Counted from the first letter of the stretch, positions 9,568-63,396 are shown. The stretch is 64,000 nt of DNA from a bacterium (GCA_024635475.1 JAGXIW010000008.1:13592-77591); one strand, 5' to 3'. Notes: generated by a model from the sequence alone, not told the origin. Program-made: numbers and translations.

Positions 9568-9591
9568 TTTTATTTTTATAAATAAATTTAA

Positions 9592-10290: not shown

Positions 10291-10361
10291 AATATTTTCT
10301 AAATGTATTATTTTTTATAATATCAATAAAAAATGCTTTAAAATTAATAATTATTTAATAG

Positions 10362-14133: not shown

Positions 14134-14136
14134 ATT

Positions 14137-15159: not shown

Positions 15160-15164
15160 TATTT

Positions 15165-18162: not shown

Positions 18163-18166
18163 TTTT

Positions 18167-19369: not shown

Positions 19370-19375
19370 AAAAAT

Positions 19376-20194: not shown

Positions 20195-20242
20195 TAAAAT
20201 TAAGTTAAGTATTATTTAAATTATTTACTTTATTATTGTTTT

Positions 20243-20968
20243 ATGAAATATTCACCTAATATATATAAATATATTTCAGAAGATATATCAAATGCATTTC
20301 GTTATGGATTTAAAGAGTGAGAATATGAAGCAAATAAATCTCATGTTAAAATTACTGAAGATAAAAAGTTTGAGATTATTGAATTTGATGATTATTTTGA
20401 AGTAAATGGTTATTTAATAGCGAAAGAAAATTTTTGAGAACCTTGTTCTCCAAATGTTCAAAAAAATCCAGTAAATATAGATAAAGGAGCTCCACAGGCA
20501 TGGATGTATACTATAGATGATGATTCAGTATCAGGTGATGGTAAATATAGATGATTCGAATTATTTAAATATACATTTCCACGGATTAATATTTCAAAAA
20601 CCACAGCAATAAATCAAAATATATATCCAGCTAATTTTTGGGTATACAATTCTATATGAGCAATTATAGAAGGAGAATATCGTTGAGTAAGAATTCCAGA
20701 GAATTGGGAGCTTTTAAATTTAATAAATTCTATTCCTTGAAATTGTATTGAAAAAGCAAAATCTTTACAGATACCATTCATTGGATTTCGTAGTACTGAT
20801 AATAGTGGAAAAATTCATTTTCTTTGAGAATGTGCATTTCTTTTATCTTCAGATCATTTTGCAAATGCTGGTGAACGTAATTTACGTCTTTTTAGATGAG
20901 GAAATAAAGCAATTGGTGATTGGATTGACTGTGGTCGTTGAGCTTCTGTGCGTTATTTTCTAAAATAA
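20243..20968 (+). CDS. FISUMP-like (Fibrobacter succinogenes major paralogous domain-like) protein
   Basis: 241 aa. The C-terminal GVRIPENWELLNLINSIPG...IPFIGFRSTDNSGKIHFLGECAFLLSS...CGRGASVRYF matches the G.hlPs..EW..L ... G.r...G ... g.SVRC pattern of TIGR02145 as I remember it. Confidence 0.45.
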
Positions 20969-21005
20969 ATAATTAATATAAAAGTTTTTAAATTATATAT
21001 AAAAT

Positions 21006-21974
21006 ATGAAAAAACATATAGAGATAAATATTTGAAAAGCATGTAATAATAAATGCAGATTTTGTATGAGTTCTCAATATGCAATAAAACGAGTTTGAGA
21101 AACTTTTTGATTAGTAGCTTTTAATTTAATAAAAAAAGAAATTAAAACATATGCTATTAAATGATATAAATCAATTTGATATATTTGATGAGATATTTCT
21201 ATTCATCCAAATATTTATGAAATTATAGAAAAATCAAGAAAATATTGATTTGAAAATATATCAATTATTACAAATGCTATGGTATTTTCAGATTATAATA
21301 AGGCAGAGAAATTAATTTTATCTTGAACAACTAGAATAAATATATCTATTCATTCCCATAATTGTAATATAGAAGATTATATCACTCAAATAAATTGATG
21401 ATTTGAAAAGAAACTATTAGCTATTGATAATTTTAATAAATTATATAACCATAAAGTTTTAAAAAATCCAATAAGTATAAATATAGTTTTAAATTGATTG
21501 AATTATAAAGATATAACAAAAACTTGTTTATACTTTTATAAAATTAAGAATATAAAAGATATAAGAATAAATTTTTTATGGAATAGATTTTTTTTCTCTG
21601 AAGATGATAAAAAAAAATTAGAATTAAGTTATACAGAATTTTTACCTTATTTAAAAGAATTAATAATATTTTCAATAAAAATAAACCTAAGAATAACATT
21701 TGATGCAATTCCAGCTTGTGTTTTTCATAAATTAGGATTTAAAAATCATAATTTTATAATTAGAAAATTTTTATGAGAAGAATTGGATTATATAGATGAG
21801 GTTTCTAATATAAATATGGATGTAAAATTTAATTGGAAAGAACAAAAAAGAAATGAACTAAAAACAAAATTTGATAAATGTAATGATTGTTTATATTCAA
21901 ATAAATGTCAGTGAATCTGGAAAGAATATGTTAAAAGATATTGAGAAGATGAATTTAATGCTATTTTATTTTAG
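21006..21974 (+). CDS. Radical SAM protein with C-terminal CxxCx5CxG motif (tandem paralogue A)
   Basis: 322 aa. INIGKACNNKCRFCMS, KGYKSIGYIGGDISIHPN, ITNAM, RINISIHSH, and C-terminal DKCNDCLYSNKCQGIWKEY. Confidence 0.8.
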
Positions 21975-22120
21975 AAATATCAACATAACTATTTTTTCTT
22001 GAAATGTTGTTAATTATGATATAACAAGAATACTAGATTTACAATTTATTTAAAAATTAGTTATTACATCTAAAATAGATGATAATAGTAACTTGAAAAA
22101 TTTAAATTATTGTAAAATAG

Positions 22121-22153
22121 AAAAATAATTTATAAAAAAATAAATTATTTTTT
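22121..22153 (+). terminator. Weak all-A/T hairpin followed by a T-run inside the 280-bp gap of the cluster
   Basis: AAATAATTTA (22123-22132) pairs perfectly with TAAATTATTT (22141-22150) around an 8-nt loop, followed by TTT. The stem has no G/C, so terminator function is uncertain. Confidence 0.3.
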
Positions 22154-22254
22154 AGGAGAAAATAGATATAATGATCAAGAAAATTATAATATAATAAGAA
22201 ATTATTATGAAAAAAATTTTAGCATAAGATTAATTTCATATAAAATATTACATC

Positions 22255-23214
22255 ATGGATAATCTAAAACATATCGAAATTAATATCTGAAAAGCTTGTA
22301 ATAATAGATGTAGATTTTGTATGAGTTCAAAATCAGAACTAAGGGATATTAAATTTGTACAATTGGATGAATTAAAAAATAAAATTAAAAGTTATTCTGA
22401 AAAATGATATAAATCAATATGATTTTTATGATGAGATATATCAATTCATCCAAATATAATAGAAATAATATCTTTTTGTAAAGAAAATTGATTTGTAAAT
22501 ATAAATGTAATAACAAATTGAATGAGATTTGAAGATTTTAAATTTACAAAAAAGTTGATAAATGCTTGATTAACAAGAGTCAATTTTTCAATTCATTCTC
22601 ATCTAGATAAAATAGAGGACTATCTTATACAAGTTTCATGATGACTTCAAAAAAAATTAAAAGCAATTGATAATTTTAATATTTTCTATAAAAATTGACT
22701 ACTAAGAGATGAATTAAGTATAAATATAGTTTTAAATAGTAAAAATTATAAAACAATTGTAGAGACAGTCTTATTTTTTTATAAAATAAAAAATATAAAA
22801 GATATTAGAATAAACTTTATTTGGCTTAATAATGATACTAAAGAAAATTGGGAGGATTTAAAATTAACTTATACAGAATTTTTACCATATTTAAAACAAC
22901 TTATATATATATCACTAAAATATTATATAAGAATTACTTTTGATACTATACCAGCTTGTATTTTTTATAAAATAGATAATATAAATTACAAATCATTAAT
23001 AAAGAAATTTTTATGAGAAGATTTAGATCATATAACAGAAATCGATCATATAAATAACAATGACCAATTTAATTGGAAAGAAAGAAAAAAAGATATGTTA
23101 AAAATGCAGTTTGAACAATGTGAAAAATGTAATTATAATATTTCTTGTCAATGAGTTTGGAAAAATTATTGAAAGATATATTGATGAGATGAATTTAAGG
23201 CTGTAATTAAATAA
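22255..23214 (+). CDS. Radical SAM protein with C-terminal CxxCx5CxG motif (tandem paralogue B)
   Basis: 319 aa, collinear with the 21006 gene. INIGKACNNRCRFCMS, KGYKSIGFLGGDISIHPN, RVNFSIHSH, YKIKNIKDIRINF, LTYTEFLPYLK, and C-terminal EQCEKCNYNISCQGVWKNY. Confidence 0.8.
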
Positions 23215-23228
23215 TTTTACTAAAGAAT

Positions 23229-24857
23229 ATGATTGAGAACAAAAAAATAATAATAGATAAATATATATCAAATATAACTACTTTTGATCTTTTTTCTGAA
23301 ACATATCGTTGATGAAAAGAACAAAAATTGTATTTGCCATTATCTTATAATTATATATTTTCAAAATGGGAAGATTTTATAAAGATGAATCCTGATTGAG
23401 TTATAGATTTATATATTCATATACCTTTTTGTTTAAAATTATGCTCTTATTGTAATTATTATAAAACTTTAGTTGAAGAAAATAGTTTAGATAAATATGT
23501 GCTTGATTATTTGATTCCATATTTACAGAATATATCTATTATTTTCGAGTGATTTAAATTTAATTCTCTTTATATATGATGATGAACACCATCAATTATT
23601 GGTTTAAAATTATTAGAAAAATTATTATCTTTTATCGAAAATAATATACTATTTGTAGAGTGAGCCGAGAAAACATTTGAATGAAATCCTATTTCTCTTT
23701 CAGAAAAGAAAATAGAAATTTTATCAAAATATTGAATCAATAGGGTCAGTATGGGTGTTCAAACATTGAATAATAAAGTTTTAATTAAAACTAATAGGGA
23801 ATATCAAAATTTAGAAATAATAAAAAAAGTTATTAATAAACTTAATAATTTTTGAATATCTAATATAAATATTGACTTATTAATATGATTAGATAATAAT
23901 GAAAAGGATGATTTTATTTATTCTTTGTGAGTTTTCTCAAAATTAAATATAAGTTTAATAACTACATATTGGTTAACCCCAACTTCCAGTTACCTTTTAA
24001 AGCATTTTTCTTGAGATAAAAATATGTTTTATGCAAATTTAAATAATCAAATAAATAGTATATATGATGAATTAACCAAGATTATTTCGAAATTTAAATT
24101 TGAAAGTTATAATATAAGTAAATTATCTAATCATTGTTGGCAATTTACAATAAAAAACTGTAATACAAAAACTAGTTATACAGATATTTGAAATAATTCA
24201 ATATTATGAATATGACCTTCATCTAGATCTTATATAAATTGATCTTTGGTTTATTTGACATTAGAGTATATTCCAATAAATTTTAATATAAAATTTGTAG
24301 ATAATTTATGAAAAAAAATAAATAGTTATGATGAAATGCTTTTATATACTATAATTAATGTTAGAGACAATTGATTTATTAATACAGATTATATATATAA
24401 AAATTTTAGTTTAGATTTTAAAAATATATTTTCTCAAGAAATTGAATTTTTATTAAAATTTAATTATATAACAATTAAAGATAATAATTTTATTTTTTCT
24501 GAAAATGTTAATAAAAAGTATTATTCTATATTATTTTTATTTGATTTGATAAAATTAGATATAAAAGATTTTTTGAATTCAAAAGAAAAAAGAGGAAATT
24601 ATATAACTTTATCTAGTAATAATATAGAACTTATTTTAAATATAAAAAATGATAATGTTTTTATATTTGTAGATAAAGAAAAAATTAATATTAATAATAT
24701 TTATCGATATTACTTTGTTATACTAAATATAAAAAAAATTTATGAAAAATTTAATAAATATATATTTAGTTTATTAGACTTTTATAATATTTTGAATAAA
24801 TATTTTTCAAAAAAGAACAAAGATTTAAATGTATTTTTAAATTATACTTCTAAATAA
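23229..24857 (+). CDS. HemN/HemW-like (coproporphyrinogen III oxidase family) radical SAM protein
   Basis: 542 aa. LYIHIPFCLKLCSYCNY (CxxxCxxC with the HemN context), SLYIGGGTPS, GINRVSMGVQTLN, DLLIGL, and ILGIGPSSRSY near the HemN C-terminal domain. An unrecognised ~100 aa tail follows. Confidence 0.75.
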
Positions 24858-24922
24858 TTTAAAAATTACGGATAATAAATTAATAGCAAGTAAATTAAAA
24901 ATTAAGTAATTATTCAAATATA

Positions 24923-26191
24923 ATGGAAAATAAAAAAAACTTTCTTTCTAAAGAAAAAATAACTAAACAAAATCGTATTTGGGTTCGTATAGCATCTGTA
25001 TGTAATAATAGATGTATTTTTTGTCTTGATAGTTTTGCTCAAAATTGAACTTTCCCGGAAGAAAACGAAATAAAAAAACAAATAAAAGATTGATATAAGA
25101 AATGATATGATAATAGAGTAATTATCTCTTGATGAGAGGCTTCAGTAAATCCTAAATTTGCTGATTATGTAAGATACTCAAAAGAATTATGATACGATAG
25201 AGTTCAAACAGTTACAAATTGAAATATGTATGCTTCTGAAATCTTTTGTAAAAAAGTATTTGAAGCTTGATTAGAGGAAGTAACATTTTCTTTTCATTGA
25301 CACAATGAAACTTTACATGACTATTTAGTTGATACTGCAGGGGCTTTCAAAAAATCACTTAAATGACTTATATACATAAAAAAAAATTACCCCCATGTAA
25401 TTATCAATATTGATATCGTAGTTAATAAAATAAATATAAAATTCCTTCCTGATATAATTAAATTTTTTATGAAACTGTGAGTTTATGAATATGATATTTT
25501 GCAAATAATCCCTTTTGGTAGATGATTTCAGGAAAATAAAGAAAAATTATTTTATAATATTGAAGAAAATATTAAATATTTGCAAGATACTTGGAAATTA
25601 TCAAAAGTTCCAGGTATGTATATGTGGACAAATAGATTTCCATCTGAAGCCTTTGAATGATATGAAGATTTAATTCAAGACCCGAGAAAAATCAAATCAG
25701 AAGTTATGTGAGAATGAAAACATCATTTTGAGCCATTTATAGTTTCTTGATGAGAAATAAAACAAGATTGTTTCTGAATTGCATGTGAGTTTTGTTTTTT
25801 AAACCAGTATTGTAATGATTTTATAAAAAATCGAGATAAAAATAAACTTGAATCAGATAGTAGTTATGAGATAATTAGATGAGAAGAATTTCCAAGCCAA
25901 GTTTATGAAAAATATTGAGAAAAAAAAGAAGATTTTATAAAATATTTGAAAGATATTGATAAATTACTTATAAATATCCCAAAATGTTTGTGATGAACAG
26001 GAATTTATGAAAGTTATAATGATATAAGAGAAGAAAAGACATTAGAAGATTATACATATAAATATATAAATAATTTATATAGAAAAAAATCTTTGAGATG
26101 TAATAGTTGTAAATATAATAAAACTTGTGAAGGTATTCATATAAATTTTATTAGGAGTTATTGATTTAGTATTTTACAACCTGAATTATAG
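24923..26191 (+). CDS. Radical SAM protein with extra Cys-rich C-terminal region
   Basis: 422 aa. RIASVCNNRCIFCLD, VIISGGEASV, VTNGN, EVTFSFHGH, internal CFGIACEFCFLNQYC, and C-terminal LRCNSCKYNKTCEG. Confidence 0.8.
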
Positions 26192-26198
26192 AAAAATT

Positions 26199-27143
26199 AT
26201 GGCAAATATTTGATATATCCAAGTAAATCGTTTTTGTAATAACCAATGTCATTTTTGTTCAAATACAAGTAATTGAAATAATATCACTTTTGAAAGATGA
26301 TTGGAACTTATAGATGATTTTATTTCTAGAAAATATTCTTGAATTATCTTCACTTGATGAGAACCTACTTTATCACCAGATTTACCGAAATGGATAGATT
26401 ATGCAAAACAAAAGAATATTAATTGTAGGATTATATCTAACGGGATGATGTGTTCTAATATCGATTATATAAAAACTTTAAAAACTGCTTGATTATCTTT
26501 AATTCATTTTTCATTGTACTCATATATTTTAGAAATTCATGATTTTTTGACTGATACTCCATGATCATACAAAAAATTACTAAAAGCTATTCAAAATGCA
26601 TTAAAACTCTGAATTAGAGTACAATTAAATTGTGTTATAAATAAATATAATCAAAATCATCTTGATAAAACTACTAAATTTATAGTAAATAATTTTCCAG
26701 ATATAAAGCATTTTGTTTGGAATAATTTGGATCCACAGATGATGAGACAAACTGAGATTGCTTTATCTACTTTACCTGATTTTGATATTGCTTGAAAAAA
26801 TTTAGTTAGAACTATGACTTTTTTGGAATCAACTTGAAGAACTTTTAGAGTTGAAAGATTACCAATTTGTTTTATGAGAGGGTTTGAACGGGCTTCAACA
26901 GAAACAAGAAAAATAGTTAAACATGAAGAAAGAATAGTACATTTTTTGGATTCCAGAAATACTTTTCAGGAACTAGAATGGGAACATGAAAGAGCTATAG
27001 AATGTGAAAAATGTGACTTAAAATCAATTTGTGCAGGAATTTATGAAAAAAAGGCTTATTATAATTATGTAAAAGTTATTTCTCAGAAATTATCAAAAGA
27101 AGAAAAAGAAAAAATCATATCTAAAATAAAAATGGATGAATAA
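26199..27143 (+). CDS. Radical SAM protein with C-terminal CxxCx5CxG motif
   Basis: 314 aa. QVNRFCNNQCHFCSN, IIFTGGEPTL, IISNGM, LIHFSLYS, and C-terminal IECEKCDLKSICAGIY. Last gene of the co-directional block. Confidence 0.8.
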
Positions 27144-35976: not shown

Positions 35977-36120
35977 CTTGTTTTAGAATATTAATAATAA
36001 TCTTACTTAATTTTAACATTTTTTGTAAATAAAATCAAATAATCTAAAAGAAAACTGTACAAAAAAGTAAAATAAATATAATATAGATATATAAAAACCA
36101 TTATTTTAATATAATTGAAA

Positions 36121-37677
36121 ATGAAAGATATAAAATGTAAAATAAATAGAGGCTTGGGTAATTGTAATTTAATCAATAAAATAGGTTTTACTTTAATAGA
36201 ATTAATAATTGTAGTAACGATTTTAGCAATTCTATGAACAATAGGATTTGTATCATATGTATGATATGTAAGTGTATCAAGAGATTCAACTAGAATATCT
36301 CAAATACAAATAATAAATCAAGCATTCAATTCATATACACATTGAAGACCTCCATTACCTGATAATAAAGTTACAATATATGCAAGTTGAGTAATATTAG
36401 GATATCAATGATATGTAGGAGAAGATGTATTATCAAATATATGAGTAAATGAACAATGAAAAGATCCACTTGATAATAATTATTATACATATTTTATAGA
36501 CAAGAAACAAAGAAATATACAATTACTTACATTTTTAGAGAATGAATTAGATGAAAATCTTAGTTATAATTGATTTATAAATCAAGCTATAGCTGATTAT
36601 AGTAATAGAATTCCAAAACCTTATTGAAGTAAATTATGAGTGATTGTAGAGAGTGGTTCAAATTCACCAATTCAAGATAACACAGCACTTAGAGATAGTT
36701 GACTTGATGTAAGTACTACCACAACTCCATACAAAGCTTACTTTACATCTGATCAATATTTATACTGAACTTGAATAATTTTACATAAACTTCAACAATC
36801 AATAAATCATAATTGAGTATGATTAGCATCACCAAGTTCTTGTCCAGGTGGATTTATAGGAGTGCCAGGTAATATAGAATTTAATCAACCAGGATTTTGT
36901 GTGATGAAATATGAAGCAAGTTATAACACTCCATACAACCTAACTACAGAGCCTAATCGGGAAACAGATGATTATAATTCTTCAAAAACAGATATAATAT
37001 CTAAAGCTTGAGGATATCCTATAACAAAGATAACACAATTAGAAGCTATAAATTTATGTAAAAATATGTGAGAAGGGTATCACTTAGTAATGAATGATGA
37101 ATGGATGGTAATAGCTAGAAATATAGAGCAGGTTTGAAATAACTGGTCAGGAAATAAAGTATGAAGTTGATTTATATATATTGGTAGATCAGAAAATTCA
37201 CTTAGATGATGTGTATGATCTTGATGAATTTCTGATATATTATCTTCAACATGGGCAGAATCAACTTGAACTGATTGTATAGAAAAAAGAAATGATTGAA
37301 AAGCAAGAAATACATTGATATTATCTAATTGAGAAGATATATGGGATTTCGCGGGGAATATACAAGAGCATGTAAATAAAGCAAATACATTAGATTGAAA
37401 TAATTATGCAACTTGAACTAATCCTAATCTATGTGGACAAACTAATGATGGTTATGAATGGAATGAATGTACATTATCATGAAGAACTCTTTATTGACCG
37501 ACAAATATTGCACGGACGAGTACTTACTGAGTATGAACAGTATACGGTTATAATTGAACTATTTTTACTCGTTGAGGTCGTGCTAGTAATAGCTTTCGTT
37601 CTGGAATATTTAGATTGACATTGGATTTTGATTCTGATAGTAAAATTGAATATTTAGGGTTTCGTTGTGCTAAGTAA
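36121..37677 (+). CDS. Prepilin-type N-terminal cleavage/methylation domain protein fused to an FGE-sulfatase (SUMF1)-like C-terminal domain
   Basis: 518 aa. NKIG/FTLIELIIVVTILAILGTIGF (type IV pilin class III signal), then pilin-like ARISQIQIINQAFNSY. C-terminal half has FCVMKYEAS, GYHLVMNDEWMVIARN, GGRASNSFRSGIF, and ends YLGFRCAK. Confidence 0.7.
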
Positions 37678-37993: not shown

Positions 37994-38710
37994 ATGAAAA
38001 ATAAAAAATTATTAACATGATTATTACTTACTACTGTTGTAGTAGGATGAATCTGAGCAACATTTGCAAGTGATTCTACAAAATCTTGAATAACAAATGC
38101 AAATAAAGAATTTAGAAAAATTAATAATTTAAATGCTGAACAAAAAGCTGAAATGGAAGCAATTAAAACTATAATGCAAAAAAAGAAAAATGGTGAAACT
38201 CTGACTGTAGATGAACAAGCTAAATTAACAGCTTTTGAAGCAAATAAACCAAATTGAAAGGGAATATGAATGGGAATGTGAATGGGGATGTTAATGGGAA
38301 AATGACATTGAGATAGATGATGAGAAATGAGAGAAAGAGGTTTTGAAAATAATTTAACTGATGCTGAAAAAACTGCATTAAAAACAATGACAAATGCAGA
38401 AAAACAAACTTTTTTTGAGACAAAAATGACTACTCAAAAAGCAAAAATGGAAGCATATGAAAATGTTATAGATAAATTATTAGCTTGAGTTACTCTTACT
38501 TCAGAAGAAGAAGCAATTAAACAAGAAATAATAAAACAAAGAGCTGAGAGAAAGGCTAAAATGGTGGAAATGGAAACTAAAATGACTGAAATAAAAGCTA
38601 TTTTAGAAAAAAAGAAAAGTGGTGAAACCTTGACTTCTGATGAACAAGCTAAACTTGATACTTTTAAATCAGAAAGACATTGAAAGGGGATGAGAAAGAT
38701 GATGAACTAA
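37994..38710 (+). CDS. Secreted repeat protein with LTxxQ-like motifs and a Gly/Met-rich core
   Basis: 238 aa. Signal peptide (LLTGLLLTTVVVGGIGATFA), repeated ...GETLT(V/S)DEQAKL... units, and a central GKGIGMGMGMGMLMGKGHGDRGGEM. Loosely CpxP/Spy-like; family-level call only. Confidence 0.55.
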
Positions 38711-38790: not shown

Positions 38791-39207
38791 CTATTCACTT
38801 ATCCTTTCATATTGTATATCGGAATCTATTTTTGCAAAAACTACTTGCCAAAGGTGGTGTGTTTTTGCAAGTGCAGTTCCGGGGCAACATAGGAGATAAT
38901 ATTTCCATAATCTGTAAAATCTCTCATCATATTTATTTTTTAACTTACTCCAATTTTTATCAAAATTTTTATACCATTCAAGCATAGTTCTATGATAATG
39001 TTGTGTAAAATCATGCCAATCCACAACGTAAAATAATTCTTCAATTGCGGCCGTAATTTGTTTGGCTGAGAGACAAATTGAGCCGTTTAGTAACAATCTA
39101 GTATAAAATTTATCATTGTGGACTTTTATATCCCAAGGACGGGAACCGTTGATAATCACATCGGCTTTTTTAAATAATTCTATTCCTTTTTGTTTAATAT
39201 ATCACAT
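38791..39207 (-). pseudogene. cfa: Cyclopropane-fatty-acyl-phospholipid synthase (cfa) remnant with an in-frame internal deletion of the methyltransferase core
   Basis: The N-terminal ...ADVIINGSRPWDIKVHNDKFYTRLLLNGS (compare E. coli Cfa INGSAPADIRVKNPDFFKRVLQEGS) is joined directly to the C-terminal ...CLSAKQITAAIEELFYVVDWHDFTQHYHRTMLEWYKNF...ERFYRLWKYYLLCCPGTALAKTHHLWQVVFAK (compare GCLPSVRQI...MEDWHNFGADYDTTLMAWYERF...FTYYLNACAGAFRARDIQLWQVVFSR). About 250 aa of SAM-binding core are missing. GC is visibly higher than in flanking DNA. Confidence 0.7.
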
Positions 39208-39233
39208 AATTTTTAATTTTAATGTTTATTTTT

Positions 39234-40085
39234 TTACTTCATTAACAATAATCATAATAATGCAACAAGACTACCAATAATTTTTCTTGATAAATCTTCC
39301 CTTTCATTCAAAAATAAGGCTCCAGCAATAAATACTATAACAACCTTAAATGTGGTAATTGCTGACACCAGACTCAAATTTCCGACAACGAAAATAAGTA
39401 CAACCCAAGATAGTGAATGTAAAAATCTCAAGACTCAAGTAATTACTATATCCTTTTTTAAGTATTGATTTTTATCATGAGTTATAAGTGTTGTAATTCC
39501 AAGAAATAGACATTGAGACCACCAAGCCATCATAGTACCAGCTGTAAATCAAGACATCTTTTGAAGAGCTCTTCCAGCAGTTAAATTAATTCCAAGTGCT
39601 ATACCTGATAAAACTATCAACATAAAATATTTATCAAATTTAAATCTTCCTATTCTGTGTTGTTTTGATACAATTACCATTCCAACAAGCAAAAGAATAG
39701 TTCAATAAATCTGTAAAGTTGTTAATTTCTCATTTAAAAATAATGTTGCAAGTACTATTGTTACTGGGGTATATATGTTATTTATTAGAGTACTAATTCC
39801 AGCTTCAACATGTTTTTGTGCTATAAAATAAGAGATGAAGTAAGTTGCTCCAGAAATACCACAAATCAAAGTTAAGATAATTAAATAAAAAATATCACCT
39901 TGAATATAAAAAGGTTCAAAAAATGGTAAAAATAAACTTAAGATTGTAATAATCAGTGTAACATAGAAAGCAAAATTTATTTGTCATTTGTTTTCACTAT
40001 TTTTTTTAGTTGCTAACCGTCTTCTTTGAATAGGAGATAATGTTGCTGCTATAAAATAGAATATGTAACTTAATAATATAATCAT
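39234..40085 (-). CDS. EamA/DMT-superfamily transporter (tandem copy 1)
   Basis: 283 aa, ~10 TM helices, with the EamA-type C-terminal ...FIAGALFLNEREDLSRKIIGSLVALLGLLLMK. It contains 5 in-frame TGA (Gly), so host-type coding. Confidence 0.7.
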
Positions 40086-40167
40086 TTAATTTTAAAAAAA
40101 ATAAGATAAAAAATTTAGATTTATCTTATTTTAATAAATTTGGAATTATTGTCAAAGAAGCTTTTTT

Positions 40168-41019
40168 TTATTTCATCAACAATAATCATAATAATGCAAC
40201 AAGACTACCAATAATTTTTCTTGATAAATCTTCTCTTTCATTCAAAAATAAGGCTCCAGCAATAAATACTATAACAACCTTAAATGTGGTAATTGCTGAT
40301 ACTAGACTCAAATTTCCAACAACGAAAATAAGTACAACCCAAGATAGAGATTGTAGAAATCTTAAGACTCAAGTTATTACTATATCCTTTTTCGAGTATT
40401 GATTTTTGTTATGAGTTATAAGTGTTATAATTCCAAGAAATAGACATTGAGACCACCAAGACATCATTGTGCCAGCTGTAAATCAAGTCATCTTTTGAAG
40501 AGCTCTTTCAGTAGTTAGTGTAATACCAAGTGCTATACCTGATAAAACTACCAACATAAAATATTTATCAAATTTAAATCTTCCTATTCTGTGTTGTTTT
40601 GATACAATTATCATTCCAATAAGTAGAAAAAATGTTCAGAGTATTTGTATAATTGTTAATTTTTCATTTAAAAATAGAGTTGCAAGTACTATTGTTATTG
40701 GTGTATAAATATTATTTACTAGAGTACTAATTCCAGCTTCAACATGTTTTTGTGCAATAAAAAATGAGATAAAATAAATTGCTCCTGAAATACCACAAAT
40801 CAAACTTAAGCTAATTAAATAAAAAACATTACCTTGTATATAAAAAGGTTGAAAAAATGGTAAAAGTAAACTTAATATTGTAACAACCAGTGTAACATGG
40901 AAAGCTAAACTTATTTGTCATTTATTTTCGCTATTTTTTTTAGTTGCTAACCGTCTTCTTTGAATAGGAGATAATGTTCCAGCAATAAAATAGAATATGT
41001 AACTTAATAATATAATCAT
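40168..41019 (-). CDS. EamA/DMT-superfamily transporter (tandem copy 2)
   Basis: 283 aa, collinear with copy 1 and offset by exactly 934 bp. There are scattered substitutions and the last few codons differ (…LLLMK* versus …LLLMK-type end with TTGATGAAATAA). Confidence 0.7.
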
Positions 41020-41099
41020 TTAATTTTTAAAAAATAAGATAAAAAATTTAGATTTTTTTTATTTCAATAATTTTGGAATTATTGTCAAAGAAGCATTTA

Positions 41100-41519
41100 T
41101 TATTTATCCTTAAAATTACAATTTTTTTTACACAATTTTATCCAACCTAATTTTAACCATAGTACTATTTCTTCATAAGATTGTATATTTTTATCGGGTT
41201 CTTGCAAAAGTATTACTTCAAGATTTTTATTATAAATAAGATTTTGAGAAACTCCAAAACACATTTCTGCAAAAGATTCTGCACCGAGATATCAAGTAAT
41301 ACCATTTTTATTTTCATTCATAACAAAAAGAATATCTGCCTCTGTAATATTTTTGAAAAAATCTATATGTACTTTAGGATATTCATCTAAAAAGGTTTCT
41401 TTGTTTATTGGTGATGGATAATTTATAACATAATATCATTGATTTTCCCAAAAACCTTTCCAATATTGAATTTCTGTTTGAAGTGATACACTTCCGGCTA
41501 TAACAACTTTTTTTGTCAT
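41100..41519 (-). CDS. Nucleoside 2-deoxyribosyltransferase-like small protein
   Basis: 139 aa. MTKKVVIAGSVS...ADILFVMNENKNGITGYLGAESFAEMCFG, a Rossmann-like pattern of the NDT/DUF4406 group. Contains 2 in-frame TGA (Gly). Family call is tentative. Confidence 0.4.
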
Positions 41520-41570
41520 ATTATTATTTAAATTGATAAAAAATACTGCTTGAATTTTTTTAACTACAAC

Positions 41571-41960
41571 TTACTTTTTTGGCCTCAAATAAACCAATAA
41601 ACCAACATATGGTATCAACATTATCATCTCAACAACAGTTTGTATTTTTTTCCCTGGTGCACCAAGTTGAGCAAAATCTATTTTCAAGAGAAATCCAATC
41701 ATAAAAATAATTGCAATAATTCCACCAATAATAATTACATTAAGCGAGTCAATATTTTTAACGGGATCCTTGGCAATGGAAAGTAATAATAATGAAATGA
41801 CTATCGCAGACACTGCTATAATAGAATCGTGATAGGGATGATATAATGCACCATCGTAAAATGGAAAAAGTGTAAGTCCAAAAAGGTGAGCCATTGCTCC
41901 AACTAAATAATATAGAGCACCGAGAATTAATAATAACTTAAGAGTTTTGATTTTATCCAT
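41571..41960 (-). CDS. Hypothetical integral membrane protein (129 aa)
   Basis: Uninterrupted ORF even under the standard code. 4 predicted TM helices, 10 Gly codons with none TGA, TAA stop. GC-richer than the host genes. Confidence 0.6.
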   Translation of the reverse strand: MDKIKTLKLLLILGALYYLVGAMAHLFGLTLFPFYDGALYHPYHDSIIAVSAIVISLLLLSIAKDPVKNIDSLNVIIIGGIIAIIFMIGFLLKIDFAQLGAPGKKIQTVVEMIMLIPYVGLLVYLRPKK

Positions 41961-41979
41961 ATTTTCTTTTTTTATTAAA

Positions 41980-43200
41980 TTAAACCTTTAATAATTTTGG
42001 TTCTCTGTTCCATTTTAATAATATAACTAATCCAGCAAAGATAAACACCACCATAGACAACATGGCTATACGGTAACTTGTATGTTGTATTCCAAAAACA
42101 GCTATAATTCCTCCCCAAGTTAATGGTCCAAACAATGTAGCGAATCGCTCAGCTATGGTGTAAAAAGAAAATCCATAACATAAGTCCTCTTTCTTTAATA
42201 TTTCGCTTAAATAAGCTCTGCTAACCGTTAAGGAAGAACCAAGAAATAAACCGACTAAACTTGAAAATATTGACAATGAGAGCATGTTTTTAGCTATAGC
42301 AATCAATGGGATTAAAATTATCCATCCGAGCAATATGATTTTTAATGTTTTTAAAGCTCCAATCTTGTCTGCGATCCAACCTGAAATAATTCCACCCAAT
42401 GCCGACATCAAAAGAACAGCTAGAAGTAGATAATTTTTAACATCATCGGAAACACTAAAAACTCTTTCCATATAAATTGCATAATTATTGGTTATTGTAA
42501 TCAATGCATCATTGAAGAAGAAAAATGACACCAGCATCGGAGTAGCAATGGAAATTGAAAAGAAAGCAATCATTTTTCTGAAATATTCTTTCTCTCATTC
42601 TTTTAAAATCTGAATATCAAGACGATTTTTCTTTGGTTTACTATCAACAAAATAAATCATCATTGGGAGTGATAATAATATGAATATAACCAGAGATGGA
42701 AACAATGGTTGTAATCTAGTACTAGATAATAGTAGTGCTATTAAGAGCCCAGATATCTGTCCCATGCTGTTTAAAAACTGCCCAATACCAAAAGCTCTTG
42801 CTCTATAATCCATATCAGCCACATCCTCAATTAAGGTGTTGTAAAAAACAAAAGAAAGTTGATAAAAATATTGTCCAAGTAAAAAACAAACTGTAATTAT
42901 AAAAATGTATTGCACTCCCAAATAAGCAAACATAGTAGCCAATCCATAACCTAAAAATGTTCATATGGTAGCCAAATTTAACAAATATTTTCTTCCGCCA
43001 TATTTATCAGTAAAAGAGGCTAATGTTGGGGCTGATAAAAATAGTAAAATAGATGTTATTGCAAAAATAGCATTGTACCAAAAATCTGACAAGCCACCAT
43101 CTACTACCATCCATGTTGAAAAATATAAAAGAAAATTTATAAAAATAAATGAATTTGCAAAATCATACAAAGCCCATTTAATTAAATTTTTTTTATTCAT
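41980..43200 (-). CDS. MFS transporter (UMF1/Atg22-like family)
   Basis: Three track ORFs (42961-43200, 42595-42942, 41980-42573) are in one frame, joined by TGA codons at 42961-42963 and 42595-42597. Read through, they give a ~406 aa 12-TM protein (WALYDFANS..., SFTDKYGGRK, ...GWIADKIGALKT...). Confidence 0.75.
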
Positions 43201-43201
43201 A

Positions 43202-43300
43202 CTATGAATTATAAATTGCTAAAATGCTCGCACCTCCAATTACAAGAATTAGTCCCAATACTTTTATTAATGTTAAAGATTCGCCTAGGAATAATCCTAT
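43202..43300 (-). pseudogene. Orphan C-terminal fragment of an EamA/SMR-type transporter
   Basis: It reads ...GLFLGESLTLIKVLGLILVIGGASILAIYNS* with no start codon and an in-frame TAA immediately upstream. The pattern (F.GE.lt....iG..li..G) is typical of the last helix of EamA domains. Confidence 0.4.
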
Positions 43301-43319
43301 TTATCCATACTTATAAAGC

Positions 43320-43604
43320 TTATCATTCTTTCCTTATTCTATTTTCTTTATCGTTTTTATGAGTTAATTTCAATATTAATAAAGACAGTGTGAGAGATGC
43401 TTCAATTGTAGTAAAAATCATTATGGGACGACTATTTATACCAAAACCATATATTACAAATAAAATTAGTCCTGTTAAAAGCAGGGAATTCCACAGTAAA
43501 GAAATATCTTCTGTTGATTTAGTTATCCATGATTTAATTACCTGAGGTACAAGGGCTGATGCGATGATTGCAGAACCAACAAAACCTATAATTTCAATAT
43601 CCAT
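43320..43604 (-). CDS. SemiSWEET / PQ-loop small sugar transporter
   Basis: 93 aa under the standard code (track ORF 43323-43604). 3 TM helices and a PQ motif (SALVPQVIKSW). It ends ...RKE-TGA-TAA, so in code 25 it gains one Gly and stops at TAA 43320-43322. Confidence 0.7.
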
Positions 43605-43710
43605 AATGATTTTTAAATTAATTAATAAATTTTTTTATTTCACTTAACATTTGCCGATAATCCCATCGTTTTAATGTTGGATATCAACTGTTAAGTGCTG
43701 AATTAATATT

Positions 43711-44061
43711 TTATTTGTTAATCCTGATAAAGAAAAATTCGTTTTCTTCGTTTCCAGTGGCTTCAATTTTATTTTCTATCCCATCTGGAATATAGATAAG
43801 GTCATCCGGAGAATATTCGAATTTTTCTCCATCTTTAAACTCAATAAATCCCTTACCTTTAAGTACCAGAAAAAATTCATCGATATCTTCATGGGAATGC
43901 CAATCAAATATTGCTCCTGCCTTAAGATAACCTTTTGTCATAGCTTGAAATTGTTCTGACACTTCATCATTCTTTGATAAGATAAGTTGCCTTTTCCCGC
44001 TTCCTTCATGAGCTTCTTCAAGGGGGATTTGATTTAGTGATTTTTTAAAAGGTTTTCTCAT
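43711..44061 (-). CDS. Cupin-domain protein
   Basis: 116 aa uninterrupted standard-code ORF. GAIFDWHSHEDIDEFFLVLKGKGFIEF...LIYIPDGIENKIEATG (cupin motifs G(x)5HxH and P.g..H). 9 Gly codons, none TGA. Confidence 0.7.
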   Translation of the reverse strand: MRKPFKKSLNQIPLEEAHEGSGKRQLILSKNDEVSEQFQAMTKGYLKAGAIFDWHSHEDIDEFFLVLKGKGFIEFKDGEKFEYSPDDLIYIPDGIENKIEATGNEENEFFFIRINK

Positions 44062-44228
44062 ATAAATTTATTTAATAAAATATTAATTTTGCACATAACA
44101 TATCGGCATCATCTGAAGTTGCACCCATATTTATTGGCTAAAACTTCAAATTTCCATCTTCTTTAATTATATCACTAAATTTTATGAACCAGATATGCCG
44201 TGTTAGCTGATGTATTCATTTCCTTTTG

Positions 44229-44684
44229 TTATCGATTTATACGCTCTAAAATCTTATTCATTTTGTTAATTTCTTCCTGCTGTGCTTTGATAATATCTTC
44301 GCATAAATTGACCAGTTCCTGATCGGTAATATTCGCTTCCTTGCACATAGTAATGGCGGCCGAGTGATGCGGAATCATGGAATTTATAAAATTTTCGTTT
44401 CCAACAAAAGCTTGCATGCGAATAGCCAAAAAGCCAAGGATAAAAATGAGAATACTCGCGAAATAAAGGAATAGATTTCTTTTTTTATCCTGATACATAT
44501 TTCGCATGAAAACGAGCATTAGTATCACCATCGGAGCAACCATAATAACCGCCATGTAAAAGCTACGAATGCTAAAAATTTTTACATCTGCCCACACATT
44601 CACGGGAGCGAATACTAGTGCATACATAATAAAGAAATGAATACCAACAGTGAATGCGAGAGCTTTATAAGGTGTTTGTTTCAT
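44229..44684 (-). CDS. DUF305-family (ferritin-like, MIPHH motif) membrane-anchored protein
   Basis: 151 aa uninterrupted ORF. 3 TM helices then FINSMIPHHSAAITMC...EDIIKAQQEEINKM. This is the most GC-rich stretch of the window by eye (GCGGCCGAGTGATGCGG). Confidence 0.65.
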   Translation of the reverse strand: MKQTPYKALAFTVGIHFFIMYALVFAPVNVWADVKIFSIRSFYMAVIMVAPMVILMLVFMRNMYQDKKRNLFLYFASILIFILGFLAIRMQAFVGNENFINSMIPHHSAAITMCKEANITDQELVNLCEDIIKAQQEEINKMNKILERINR

Positions 44685-44945
44685 AATTTATAAGGTTATA
44701 ATTAAGTATTTTTTAATGTTTTGGAAGTTATCTTGGGAAAAGAAAAGGAATATTTTAGCTAACTACTCTTTATCTGAACTTATACCTGCTTTTATTCTAA
44801 AATAGAATAATATGCGAACTAAATTTAATAAAAAGCAATTATTAATCTTATTATAATTATTATAGAAAATAATCAAAAATATTTCTTAATTACCTCTTAA
44901 TCAATATAATTAAAATAAAGATAAATAATTTCTAATTATTTTACA

Positions 44946-45608
44946 ATGAGAGTTTTAGTAATAGAAGACAATGAAATACTATCAAGAAATCTAGTTAGAT
45001 ACTTGATTTCTCGTGATATATTTGCTGAGGCTGCATTGGTTTGAGATGATTGACTCAAAAAAGCTATATCAAAGTATTATGATATAGTGATTTTGGATAT
45101 AAATTTGCCATGAATAAATTGACTTGAGATATGTAAACAAATTAGAGAAAGAGAAAAAGATGTATCTATAATTATGCTGACATCTAGATGAACAAAAGAA
45201 GATATAATAGAGTGATTAAATATATGAGCCGATGATTATCTTGTAAAACCATTTGAATACGATGAGCTTCTAGCTAGAATGAATGCAATTCTAAGAAGAA
45301 AAATGAAAAATAGTAGTAATACTCTGATAAAAATAGATAATATAGAGCTTGATTTACAAAAACTTGAAGTTACAAAAAACTGAGAAATTATACAATTATC
45401 AAAACTTGAATATGATTTGTTCAAATATCTTGCACAAAACAGATGAGTTGCACTCTCAAGAAATGAAATCTATGAAAAAGTATGGTGAGAATTTCAAGTT
45501 GATTTTATGTTTAGTAAGACAATAGATGTGTATATAGGATATCTAAGAAAAAAACTAGGAAAAGATCTAATAGAAACAAAAAAATGATTTTGATTTTTGA
45601 TTAGATAG
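44946..45608 (+). CDS. OmpR-family response regulator
   Basis: 220 aa. MRVLVIEDN, ILDINLPGINGLE, LTSRG, ADDYLVKPF, and a winged-helix output domain (LSKLEYDLFKYLAQNRGVALSRNEIYEKVWG...TIDVYIGYLRKKL). Confidence 0.9.
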
Positions 45609-45617
45609 GAAGTAAGC

Positions 45618-45765: not shown

Positions 45766-47031
45766 ATGAACAATAATTTAAAACAAACAAAAATAATACT
45801 TACTATTATGTTTTCTGTAATAGTTTTTTGTCTTGTGCTTTTTTTGGGACTTATTTTTTTCACTTGAAAATATTACAAAGAAGAACAACTTGAGAAAAAT
45901 GATTTCAATAATTTTATTACATTTATTGAGAATGATAGTTTTGATATAGATGATTTTGTTTATTCTTTTAATAGAATTAGGAAAAATATATTTAAAAAAT
46001 GAGTAAATATTTGAATGCCTATTATAGAAATAGAAGAAGTTAATGAAAAAAGAAAATTTAATTCACAGAACTTTATAAATTTTATATTAATTGATAGTAA
46101 TAAAAAAGTTATTGCAAGTGATATAAGAGATGAAGTACAAAGTGATTTATTTTCAGATGTGTTAACCAATGATAAATACCTTGAAATTACTAAAAAATCA
46201 GAATTTCTAATAAAAAAAATAAATATAGAAAAATCGAAAAATACTCTTATATTATTTAAAAAAATAAGATACTGTTTTGGCGATTATTTATCTGATTTAT
46301 TAGGTTTCATATTTATTAGTTTATTATTTTCTATACTTTTATATATAGTTTGATATAATTTTGTTGATAAGATTTTAAAACCAATAGAAACAAATATAAA
46401 GGATATGAAAGATTTTATACACAATGTATGACATGAATTAAAAACTCCACTTTCAGTAATTCACTCAGATATACAGCTTATAAATGATACGAAAAAATAT
46501 GACAAAGAAATGACTATGGAGTTGAAAAAAGAAGTTATAAGATTAAATTCATTGATTGATTCACTTATAAATTTAACAGATATAGATTCTAGAAAGATTT
46601 CAGAAAGTATAAATTTATTAGATTTAATAAATGAGATAATCAAGGATTTTAATAGTAAATTATCGGAAAAAAATATAGAAACAAAAATAACTATCACAAA
46701 AAGTATAATTGTAAAAGCTAACAGAGATTATTTGTATATATTTTTATCAAACTTAATTTGAAATGCTATAAAGTACAATAAACAAGATTGAAAAATAGAT
46801 ATTTCTTATAAATCAGGCGAGCTTACGATTAGAGATTCTTGAATTTGAATAGAAAAATCAGATTTACCAAAGATTTTTGATAGATTTTTTAAGTGAGACA
46901 AGTCAAGAAGTACCGAATGATTTGGTATAGGATTGTCACTTGTAAAGAAAATCGCAGATTTATATAAATGGAAAATAAAATTTGAAAGTGAAGATTGAGA
47001 TGGGACAAAAGTGAAGATAAAATATAATTAA
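45766..47031 (+). CDS. Sensor histidine kinase (HisKA + HATPase_c)
   Basis: 421 aa. Two TM helices bracket a ~150 aa extracytoplasmic region. H-box FIHNVGHELKTPLS, N-box LIGNAIKYN, G1 IRDSGIGI, G2 GFGIGLSLVKKIA. Confidence 0.9.
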
Positions 47032-52782: not shown

Positions 52783-52907
52783 TATAAAGATAAAACACTC
52801 GTTTATTATAAAGTAAAAATTAAAATAAGAATTATTATTATTTTAATTTGATTTTAGATATTTTTTATTTATTATTAGGTTTAATATTAGTTTTTAAAAA
52901 AATAATT

Positions 52908-53252
52908 ATGAAAACTCATGCTTATTTATTAGATATAAAAGAAATTTGTAGAGAAAAGCATTTAACTGTTGATGAAATTTTTGAAAAATTAAAAAAAACA
53001 TATCCAAAAGTAGGGAGGTCAACAGTTTATAGAAATGTTGATGAGATGACAAAGTTGGGAGTTCTTACAAAAATTATTTGAATAAAAGATAAAGCTCTGT
53101 ATGAATTAATAGGAGAAAATCATATTCATTTGATTGATACAGAATCTGGATATATAAGGGATTTAGGCATTGATAATATCAATATTCCAGGAATTCCATA
53201 TAATTTTACTGTTGATTATATGAATGTAGATATTTATGGAAAATTTAATTAA
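52908..53252 (+). CDS. Fur-family transcriptional regulator (short, lacks C-terminal Cys motifs)
   Basis: 114 aa from the internal ATG of track ORF 52848-53081, read through TGA 53082-53084. HLTVDEIFEKLKKTYPKVGRSTVYRNVDEMTKLGVLTKI is the Fur winged-helix pattern, followed by ENHIHLID. Confidence 0.7.
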
Positions 53253-62397: not shown

Positions 62398-63396
62398 ATG
62401 AGTAATTCACACCAATCTTGAAAAGTAGCAGTCTTGGCCGCAATTATCTGAAATACTACAGTTACTATACTTAAGTTTATAGTTTTTTTTATGTCAGGTT
62501 CTACATCTATGTTTTCTGAATGAGTTCATACACTTGCAGATTCTGTGAATCAGATACTTTTATATGTAGGTATTAAAAAGTCTTCAAAAAAGGCCGATGA
62601 AAAGTTTTCATATGGATATTGAAAAGAAAGGTTTTTTTGGGCTCTAATTTCAGCATGTTGAATATTTTTCTTAGGTGCTTGAATTACATTATATCATTGA
62701 GTAGAAGGGCTTATTCATCCATCGGAAATAGAAAATTATTGATTATCATATATCGTATTAATTGTGTCTTTTTTTATTGAATGACTTACATTATATATTG
62801 CTTTAAAATCTGTTTATAAAAAAGAATTTGGATTATTAAAATCAATTAAAGAGTCTGATAATGCAAGTTATGCTGTAATTTTAGAAGATTCTGTAGCAGT
62901 TTTATGAGTTACTATAGCTTTTTTTGCAATACTATTAACTAAAGTAACAGGATATTTATTTTTTGATAGTATAGGTTCAATAACAATTTGATTATTATTA
63001 TGATGAGTTGCTATTTTACTTATTATTAAAAATAAGAATTATTTAATGTGAAAATCATTAGATGATAATATAACAGAATGAATAATAAAATTAATAGAAA
63101 CAGATCCATTGATTATAAAAGTTATAGATTTTAAATCAGAAATTATAGACTTGAATGCGTATATAATTAAGTGTGAAGTTGAGTTCAATGGAACAGCTTT
63201 GATGAAAGAAATTAGCAAACATGATTTTTTAGAAGACGAATATAAACATATAAATAAATACGAAGATTTTTTAAGATTTTGTGTAGAGTATGCTAACAGA
63301 ATTCCTAGACTTATATGAAAAAATATTGATACACTGGAGATAAAAATAAAAAAACATTATCCTGAAATAAAGTATATTGATATTGAGTTAAACTAG
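62398..63396 (+). CDS. Cation diffusion facilitator (CDF) family metal efflux transporter
   Basis: 332 aa. 6 TM helices with SGSTSMFSEGVHTLADSVNQ and ILEDSVAVLGV (the HxxxD/ExxxD-type TM2/TM5 sites), plus a C-terminal cytoplasmic domain. Confidence 0.75.

Follow-up and report, generated by a model that had tools for sequence, protein, structure and literature searches.

The subject of this work is a 64,000-nucleotide stretch of a bacterial contig (GCA_024635475.1, JAGXIW010000008.1:13592-77591), hereafter the window, in which positions are counted from the first letter, and within it a block of five adjacent minus-strand genes located between a two-component-system operon and a small resident gene, here called p139. 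From left to right, these genes encode a membrane protein of a rare family, an MFS transporter, a PQ-loop (SemiSWEET-like) protein, a cupin and a DUF305 protein. We consider it likely that the segment 41527-44760, which holds the block, is foreign to its host, originates from a pool of standard-code Patescibacteria and was acquired after the host had split from its closest sampled relatives, its right-hand part being cassette-like.

The host is a Patescibacteria lineage using genetic code 25, in which TGA encodes glycine. Indeed, in this DNA of very low GC content (15-34% per kb), open reading frames (ORFs) of at least 100 amino acids cover approximately the whole window if TGA is read as sense, versus 9% under the standard code, and TGA is found at invariant glycines of the response-regulator and histidine-kinase motifs as well as at conserved glycines of MFS homologues. 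In addition, glycine codons (TGA plus GGN) account for 6.0-6.2% of all codons in the three gene classes distinguished below (the block, an intermediate segment and the rest), a constancy which serves here as an internal control for the assignment of TGA to glycine. The use of UGA as a glycine codon was already established in SR1 and Gracilibacteria, according to the works cited in PMC6851277 and PMC8406219. As a side observation, a public protein collection translates the proteins of this contig with TGA as tryptophan (code 4), for instance P0001 (41980-43200) and P0125 (41100-41519), so that a wrong residue is stored at each TGA and word-based searches are degraded.

The foreign character of the block is first apparent from its codon usage. 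The five genes (41571-44684) contain 52 GGN (10+25+5+9+3) and 2 TGA glycine codons, the latter both in the MFS gene, whereas the 52 other genes of the window contain 283 GGN and 816 TGA. The share of TGA among glycine codons is hence 0.037 in the block versus 0.742 in the rest of the window (Fisher p = 4.8e-27), and the G+C content at third codon positions (GC3) is 0.263 versus 0.116 (p = 1.2e-31), G- or C-ending codons being in excess for every amino-acid family. An independent gene-by-gene count thus reproduced exactly the numbers given in an earlier, sequence-only reading of this DNA, which had proposed a GC-richer block almost free of TGA-Gly codons. The gene identities that it proposed (MFS, SemiSWEET, cupin and DUF305) also hold by Pfam, the 129-residue membrane protein matching no Pfam family. 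Two of its statements had to be amended. The five genes are not the only long ORFs in the standard-code track, as the window has 16 ORFs of at least 100 amino acids in that track, just 5 of which are in the block. Similarly, the TGA-poor zone proposed at 41571-44700 was confirmed there and proved to be larger, the genes at 38791-41519 being intermediate.

Comparison with sister genomes defines the limits of the segment. Sister loci were reached through a protein sharing a 90%-identity cluster with p139, which led to GCA_017973835.1 (L071), GCA_017973815.1 (L072) and a groundwater contig. L071 and L072, with 24% GC, can be read only if TGA is taken as a sense codon. In blastn alignments, L071 is collinear with the window over positions 50139-45748 (PPK2, YdjM and histidine kinase; 81.8% nucleotide identity), 45607-44761 (response regulator and intergenic DNA; 91.6%), 41526-41123 (p139; 94.3%) and 38678-37764 (a gene encoding a 238-residue protein; 80.3%). 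Between the response regulator and p139, the sisters carry in place of the block a RhuM-family gene (PF13310, E 9e-112; 8783-9790 in L071, 3732-4739 in L072) with native-type codon use and a 43-residue ORF, and between p139 and the 238-residue gene they carry a NUDIX gene and a gene encoding a 669-residue protein. These RhuM, NUDIX and 669-residue genes are TGA-rich (12/1, 8/2 and 13/1 TGA/GGN, respectively). The presence or absence of the block in sister genomes, which the sequence-only reading had set as a check, is hence settled for L071 and L072: both flanks are kept, other genes lie in between and the block is absent. The edges are sharp, homology stopping at 44761 on the right and resuming a few bases upstream of the p139 start codon on the left. 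The block is hence one of two replaceable slots flanking the resident gene p139. It can also be observed that the sisters diverge from the window after the same GTT, a possible recurrent recombination point in this clade.

Regarding the origin of the genes, MFS and DUF305 are the two of the five whose closest homologues could be placed, and these lie in a lineage other than that of the host's relatives. The MFS protein has hundreds of homologues, the closest being 88, 86 and 84% identical at the amino-acid level (P0002-P0004). Among GTDB species representatives, the best match is a Nomurabacteria metagenome-assembled genome (MAG; 84% amino-acid and 81% nucleotide identity, over the gene only), followed by Patescibacteria, Moraniibacteriota and Paceibacterota MAGs, while identity to Peribacteria, the standard-code relatives of the recoded clades, is only 41-43%. 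All 42 GTDB loci with a full-length MFS match (L009-L050) are standard-code, with a standard-code ORF cover of 0.74-0.99, in no case much lower than the value obtained with TGA as sense. The contigs of the 86, 84, 80 and 76% relatives are standard-code too. For DUF305, relatives were found at 91, 89, 87, 86 and 83% amino-acid identity, the readable contigs being standard-code with 36-40% GC; they include L076 (91% amino-acid and 91.3% nucleotide identity), L077 (86%) and L078, a Candidatus Peregrinibacteria MAG (83%), all three standard-code. Taken together, the readable contigs of the nearest MFS and DUF305 relatives are all standard-code with 28-42% GC, and their named hosts are Nomurabacteria, Moraniibacteriota, Peregrinibacteria and "Patescibacteria group". 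The search for a donor lineage, which the sequence-only reading had called for, thus places the nearest readable relatives of MFS (84-88%) and of DUF305 (83-91%) on standard-code Patescibacteria contigs. The best relatives of the cupin are 70% identical and mostly located on standard-code contigs, and the 129-residue membrane protein has 27 representative clusters among 1.8 billion proteins, with a best identity of 53%.

No donor locus with a relative of one block gene has a relative of another, which makes the block a mosaic; from this lack of synteny and the anatomy described below, it would comprise three or four independently mobile pieces, if not more. The MFS gene has 30-32% GC and a GC3 of 0.23-0.26 in every host, even in hosts of 40% GC, and the GC-rich look of the block hence reflects the composition of a mobile gene pool and not that of one donor genome. 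Two loci illustrate its surroundings elsewhere: in L075 (1-1400), an MFS homologue lies between perfect inverted repeats of ~42 nt, and in L017 (2150-3560), another one lies between direct repeats of ~25 nt that duplicate the start of the downstream gene. The MFS gene appears, by these flanking repeats, to be mobile as a unit of its own, independently of the attC-like sites described below. The proposal of a recent import from a standard-code donor is thus supported by the sister genomes, the donor-side relatives, the TGA sites and the Logan contigs (see below), with the qualification that the import is a mosaic of several donor pieces. "Recent" is to be taken only in a relative sense, the nearest known relatives being 70-91% identical, and the GC excess is that of a shared mobile gene pool.

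What happened to the genes after their arrival can be partly read in the block. In the MFS gene, TGA occurs in frame at codons 80 and 202 (42961-42963 and 42595-42597, respectively). Both TGA codons are specific to the window and align with GGA (or GGG, GGT) in five relatives; to judge from this alignment, they are single G-to-T changes made in this lineage. The DUF305 gene shows 7 window-specific GC-to-AT changes and no AT-to-GC change, and the MFS gene shows 12 and 26, respectively, the gene being only slightly more AT-ward than its relatives. These MFS base changes were considered as evidence for amelioration, the drift of foreign genes that are atypical in GC3 and codon use toward host values, and were discarded given the constant G+C of this gene among hosts.

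Stop-to-sense reassignment leaves all 61 sense codons unchanged, and hence standard-code genes should be translated correctly in a code-25 host, where only the TGA stops of imported genes would be at risk. Four of the block genes end in TAA and the PQ-loop gene ends in TGA with TAA as the next codon, so that the host adds one glycine and then terminates. This agrees with the prediction that genes from a donor using TGA as stop remain translatable in a TGA = Gly host as long as their stops are TAA or TAG or are backed up. The stop codon of DUF305 is TGA in its closest relative, L076, and TAA in the window copy and in two other relatives. After arrival, the mutation pressure of the host would start converting GGA into TGA, with 2 of 54 glycine codons converted so far compared with 74% genome-wide. 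Every TGA-Gly codon in an imported gene would postdate its arrival, and the TGA share (4%, 25% and 74% in the adjacent gene classes) would hence be an unusually clean measure of residence time.

The right-hand part of the block displays a distinctive anatomy. Its three genes are separated by two sites, S1 and S2, which we propose to be attC-like sites of a family of their own, the term integron being used here as an architectural call. The inverted repeat CACTTAACA...TGTTAAGTG, picked up in the sequence-only reading, is real and corresponds to S2 (43640-43698). This site reads ACTTAAC-...-GTTAAGT, an exact RYYYAAC ... GTTRRRY pair with the inner pair GATATCC/GGAT(T)ATC, and its single-stranded DNA fold has z = -4.1. 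S1, in the DUF305-cupin spacer, is a longer relative of S2 (AGCTAAC-A-CGGCATATC ... GATGCCG-ATAT-GTTATGT), each of its outer core sites having one mismatch to RYYYAAC/GTTRRRY, and the family consensus of the outer sites is gccTAAC ... GTTAggc. The left-half motif TAACANGGNATATCTGGTTC occurs 15 times in 1.18 Mb of fetched sequence: two occurrences are the window's own site (in the window and in its Logan copy L001) and the other 13 are on contigs of cupin homologues, in every case in the orientation in which these genes had been retrieved. In one JGI contig, L083, eight site matches (seven at 73-92 bits and a weak one at 27 bits) are found in 11.7 kb, all on the plus strand and separating plus-strand ORFs, the cupin homologue being one unit of this array.

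In an alignment of 12 sites with two helices, 16 pairs are conserved and 79.7% of the cells are paired, versus 28-42% after sliding of the partners. A covariation score of 0.42 was obtained, compared with 0.19 in shuffles (0 of 500 reaching 0.42), with compensatory changes in 8 of the 9 inner L-box pairs. The second and third outer pairs are mostly unpaired, which would be expected of an R' half derived from the following cassette. The sites vary in length (59-146 nt) and have a centre of variable length. A covariance model of these sites (R1) finds others that were not part of its training set, two of them directly preceding the DUF305 homologue of L077 (2692-2791, E 4e-8; 1962-2052) and two flanking that of L078 (454-599 and 1134-1242). 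A second covariance model (R2), built solely from sites outside the window, recovered S1 as its top hit in the window (38.9 bits, E 1.5e-6; both strands, 128 kb searched) and S2 as its second (24.8 bits, E 0.003), the next best having an E of 0.66; scans with the site models found no further site in the window. Moreover, the 3' half of S1 shares an identical stretch of 24 nt with a site in L091. A search for attC sites by regular expression and helix scan gave 8 matches versus a shuffle mean of 8.6 and, being no better than shuffles, was dropped for the covariance models.

The DUF305 homology shared by the window, L077 and L078 starts, in their alignment, at the same GTTAG, which in L077 and L078 is the end of the upstream site and in the window is joined to native, sister-conserved DNA. 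In the window, the junction heptamer GTTAGCT is the exact reverse complement (7/7) of the DUF305 cassette's own inverse core, AGCTAAC. For the cupin unit, the start GTTATGT matches its own ACTTAAC at 6 of 7 positions in the window and 7 of 7 in L081 and L086, and in several L083 cassettes the complementarity between the start and the own R'' is only 4-6 of 7. The 5' leader of the PQ-loop gene starts at R' of S2 with TTAAGTGAAATAAAA, a start shared with two L083 cassettes (repeat family D3). In addition, the cupin ORF lies between the arms of a 27-nt inverted repeat (43689-43715 / 44074-44100; 24 of 27 complementary, stop codon included), which extends the R''/R' pairing outward and is found at the same place, with a different sequence, in the homologues of L081, L083 and L090. 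This outer repeat suggests a structural constraint beyond that of an ordinary attC site.

Clusters of attC sites without an integrase have been defined, for IntegronFinder, as CALINs. S1 and S2 lie ~400 nt apart and no recombinase was found in the 64-kb window, so that the two sites, if accepted as attC, would make up a CALIN; on its architecture, the right-hand third of the block is best described as a CALIN-like mini-array. In the mechanism we propose, the part adjoining the response regulator, [DUF305 - S1 - cupin - S2 - PQ-loop leader], has integron-cassette anatomy with its outer edge on the GTT where an integron-type recombinase would cut, and it seems reasonably probable that this part was captured by integrase-type recombination. 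The EamA remnant, the MFS gene and the 129-residue membrane protein gene have no such sites and would have arrived by another route. As for the cargo, it would consist of small-solute transporters and of small metal-binding or cupin proteins.

Several observations weigh against this interpretation, in its cassette aspect or in its choice of donor. Using IntI1 as a tblastn probe (100% identical to the database IntI1), neither an integron integrase nor any other tyrosine recombinase was detected (E up to 1) in the window and in L001-L100, with code 11 or 25. The model of the CPR (candidate phyla radiation) sites recovers no class 1 attC site when run on three plasmid integrons and, conversely, a model of nine class 1 attC sites misses S1 and S2 and reaches only E 1.3-6.8 at three CPR sites, with matching coordinates but non-significant scores. 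R and L boxes are 2 nt and 4-6 nt apart, versus 5 nt and 5-6 nt in class 1 attC. No recombination site is present at the left junction, in the PQ-loop-MFS spacer, which is filled by the EamA remnant, or between the MFS and membrane-protein genes, which are 19 nt apart. DUF305 is found outside any such array in L107 and L076, and no site is found near the L108 homologue either. On the donor side, the contigs of the closest MFS relative (88%) and of several DUF305 relatives are too short for their code to be read. Cupin homologues with in-frame TGA occur on other recoded contigs (L092, L094-L097), so that a recoded donor is possible for the cupin. Since the nearest relatives reach no more than 70% identity to the cupin and 53% to the membrane protein, three of the five genes have no sampled donor.

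It is also the case that the layout is not that of a complete integron, the response-regulator gene sitting where intI would be; twenty mid-sized proteins of the window, inspected by eye, are radical-SAM enzymes, ATP-synthase subunits, ABC transporter parts and the like, without recombinases, and no attC-like sites were found in the slot genes of the sisters or around the MFS homologues. These observations leave some room for an import of another kind, in which a donor fragment would have entered by transformation, by phage or with another element and would have been joined by illegitimate or microhomology recombination, the palindromes being mere passengers such as terminators or REP-like (repetitive extragenic palindromic) sequences. 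The lack of an integrase in the window and in every fetched locus examined, the mutual blindness of the canonical attC models and of the CPR family, the presence of just two sites in the window with none at the left junction, the very different flanking repeats with which the MFS gene moves elsewhere and a type IV pilin-like gene nearby (36115-37677) all speak for it. Nevertheless, the right junction lies at exactly the same base as the cassette boundary in L077 and L078, and the junction GTT completes with the next four bases the reverse complement of its own R'', which is not expected of a random breakpoint; furthermore, the repeat family separates same-strand ORFs in arrays, with a RYYYAAC/GTTRRRY consensus and a co-varying inner helix. 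We hence regard an integron-independent import as rather unlikely.

The immediate donor might also have been another code-25 bacterium, either a recent acquirer or a low-TGA user, in which case no code boundary was crossed here. Cupin homologues do occur on recoded contigs of 38-40% GC in which the TGA share is lower (3 TGA/6 GGN in L092, 4/5 in L094), and the unsampled donors of three genes would accommodate such a source. However, every close relative with a readable context (MFS, DUF305 and cupin at 70%) is on a standard-code contig, 52 of the 54 glycine codons are GGN and both TGA codons are window-specific, which makes this source very improbable. Of the same cupin homologues, which have 3-4 in-frame TGA at glycine positions (L092 3396-3746; L094-L097 near 8001-8375), we note that they could be members of the same cassette family that have resided longer in code-25 genomes.

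A native but compositionally odd region, avoiding TGA and richer in G+C on account of expression level or membrane-protein coding, is scarcely credible. A low TGA share does exist in a few native genes, such as a Fur-like gene (52848-53252; 0.11) and a repeat peptide gene (9175-9567; 0.21). Native membrane proteins of the window use TGA heavily, with TGA/GGN counts of 14/6 and 18/3 for ABC-2 permeases, 22/4 for ATP synthase subunit a and 14/2 for YdjM, and the pattern of the block is thus no property of membrane proteins. This explanation is already contradicted by these counts, by the two sister genomes that lack the block at the orthologous site and by the identity of block proteins to standard-code proteins (84-91%) as opposed to the standard-code relatives named Peribacteria (41-43%). 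Least credible of all is a chimeric assembly or binning artefact joining a standard-code fragment to a code-25 contig, which the abrupt shift of composition and coding style at both edges could evoke and which is already contradicted: two Logan contigs, from run SRR13628065 alone and 100% identical to positions 40998-43954 and 43933-45612, cross both edges (a partial stand-in only for read-pair or long-read support), the edges are single-base clean against the sisters, the TGA-containing resident p139 lies between the young and the older foreign segments, and the two in-frame TGA codons at conserved glycines, which would truncate MFS at residue 80 in a standard-code cell, indicate a gene evolving inside a code-25 cell.

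Next to the block, on the other side of p139, lies a segment that differs from both the block and the native genes. The four genes at 38791-41519, p139 included, contain 13 TGA and 38 GGN with a GC3 of 0.159, and they differ from the core block (p = 0.002) as well as from the rest of the window (p = 2e-12). The 2.4 kb from 38.7 to 41.1 kb, at a TGA share of 25%, are probably an older import. Within it, an EamA gene and its 83-nt upstream spacer are tandemly duplicated (39229-41101; period 934 nt, 88-94% identity), and TGA-Gly codons occur at the same five positions in both copies, so that these codons are older than the duplication. At its far edge, a 138-residue ORF (38791-39207) matches the cyclopropane-fatty-acyl-phospholipid synthase profile only at positions 183-272 of 273 and is probably a truncated gene remnant. 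A remnant of another kind lies inside the block: the orphan EamA fragment reported in the sequence-only reading is borne out by a match to the last 25 positions of the EamA profile (109-133 of 135, E 0.01), outside the MFS homology region. All these features are gathered in Table 1.

Table 1. Genes, sites and junctions at the foreign segment and in its flanks, from right to left.
Feature	Position	Strand	Characteristics and evidence
Histidine-kinase gene	45766-47031		Next after the response regulator
OmpR-type response regulator gene	44946-45608	+	Native flank, TGA-rich (12 TGA, 2 GGN); Pfam Response_reg + Trans_reg_C; 91.6% nucleotide identity to L071/L072
Native intergenic DNA	44761-44945		Common to sisters; last 30 nt almost invariant; ends ...AAAGAGTAGTT; alignment, blastn
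Right junction	44757-44763	-	GTTAGCT; core-site form GTTRRRY with one mismatch
DUF305 gene	44229-44684	-	151 aa, 0 TGA, 3 GGN, GC3 0.38, stop TAA; Pfam PF03713
attC-like site S1	44091-44210	-	R'' AGCTAAC (44202-44208), L box CGGCATATC/GATGCCG, R' GTTATGT (44093-44099)
Cupin_2 gene	43711-44061	-	116 aa, 0 TGA, 9 GGN, stop TAA; Pfam
attC-like site S2	43640-43698	-	59 nt; R'' ACTTAAC, L box GATATCC/GGAT(T)ATC, R' GTTAAGT
PQ-loop / SemiSWEET-like gene	43320-43604	-	93 aa, 0 TGA, 5 GGN; Pfam PF04193
EamA-type transporter 3'-end remnant	43202-43300	-	No start codon; stop codon overlaps MFS start
MFS (UMF1/Atg22-like) gene	41980-43200	-	406 aa, 25 GGN, 2 TGA; Pfam MFS_1/ATG22-like
Membrane protein gene of rare family	41571-41960	-	129 aa, 0 TGA, 10 GGN; no Pfam match
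Left junction	41527-41570		Sister homology resumes just upstream of p139 start codon; no recognisable recombination site
Resident gene p139	41100-41519	-	139 aa, no family, 2 TGA + 6 GGN; 94.3% nucleotide identity to sisters, both TGA-Gly codons conserved
Older variable segment	38791-41099	-	Cyclopropane-fatty-acid-synthase-like C-terminal fragment (38791-39207), tandem EamA paralogues (39234-40085, 40168-41019)

Other parts of the window deserve a brief mention. A 130-residue peptide ending in eleven GSH repeats (9175-9567) is encoded directly upstream of at least nine radical-SAM paralogues with a CxxxCxxC motif (the run extending over 9175-27143), two of which have a confirmed match to the Pfam family PF04055. 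Genes for a NifH-family ATPase (19376-20194; PF00142, E 3e-81) and for a nitrogenase-component-1-type protein (18167-19369; PF00148) break up this series. The whole resembles a cluster for peptide modification or for a nitrogenase-like reductase, which is unusual in a CPR genome of small size. The 238-residue protein (37994-38710) is a secreted protein with a weak Spy/CpxP-type ("Metal_resist") match and a GMGMGMGM stretch largely written with TGA; together with DUF305, the Fur-like gene (52848-53252) and a CDF transporter (62398-63396), it may point to a metal-stress theme around the two-component system. A scan of the window found no tRNA or tmRNA gene, and hence none as an integration target. 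No Rfam family was found in the window at gathering thresholds, the block giving only chance snoRNA-like matches (E >0.1), nor in L083, and consensus scans for promoters and terminators gave matches no more numerous than in shuffles.

That a stop-to-sense genome can import standard-code genes is in principle no surprise, and the locus is a clean, well-resolved example of it and not a new kind of system, although its cassette aspect may be new. In the literature searched, no paper linking integrons or attC sites with CPR taxa was found. Compared with the sequence-only reading, the present analysis adds a boundary defined to the base, the mosaic nature of the block, integron-like cassettes in part of it, the first two GGA-to-TGA conversions and an older adjacent import. 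A change of stop codons into sense codons is often called a genetic firewall, and the locus shows this firewall to be one-sided: standard-code genes enter a TGA = Gly genome still readable, with a visible cost only at their stop codons, while the TGA-Gly codons they acquire would be lethal on return to a standard-code cell. More tentatively, it is possible that CPR bacteria keep an integron-like cassette system of their own, with a distinct attC family and an unrecognised recombinase, the pool being shared across genetic codes and the GTT next to the response regulator being an attI-like capture site. In such a system, recoded genomes would be one-way sinks, as recoded lineages cannot return cassettes once GGA-to-TGA changes accumulate, and the TGA share would act as a residence clock. 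Should the sites be integron sites, cassette exchange would extend to CPR bacteria and across a genetic-code boundary, which would bear on the renewal of transporters in tiny host-dependent bacteria and on the expected leakiness of recoded biocontainment organisms.

With respect to known systems, the right-hand part of the block resembles integron cassettes and CALINs in that promoterless single ORFs in one orientation are each followed by an imperfect palindrome with outer RYYYAAC/GTTRRRY boxes, inner boxes that co-vary and a centre that differs in length (whole sites 59-146 nt), in arrays of up to eight (L083). As in integron cassettes, a cassette begins with bases complementary to the inverse core site that it carries, the junction is located at G|TT and the same cassette is found in unrelated contexts. 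It differs from them by the lack of IntI in the sequence examined, by the mutual failure of these sites and of a small class 1 attC model to detect each other and by a shorter R-L spacing, as well as by its Patescibacteria hosts, one of them with code 25, and by the extra 20-bp outward extension of the R stem in the cupin cassettes. Regarding amelioration, the locus presents the expected graded series, from the core block to the older segment and to the native genes; unlike in the classical process, the marker codon differs in meaning between donor and host, which yields a one-way and nearly noise-free record. Standard-code-compatible phages of Gracilibacteria and Absconditabacteria have no in-frame TGA and have different stops close together at gene ends (PMC10746230). 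The block is likewise readable in a TGA = Gly host and its PQ-loop gene ends in TGA-TAA; unlike these phages, thought to be dual-code for host range, it is chromosomal cargo fixed in its host, whose compatibility is starting to go with two GGA-to-TGA changes. Finally, gene-tree reconciliation has indicated that lateral transfer within the CPR continuously remodels the proteomes of Gracilibacteria and Absconditabacteria (PMC8406219). Whereas that evidence is statistical and at the level of families, the present case is a single base-resolved locus with empty-site relatives, donor-side relatives and a candidate mechanism.

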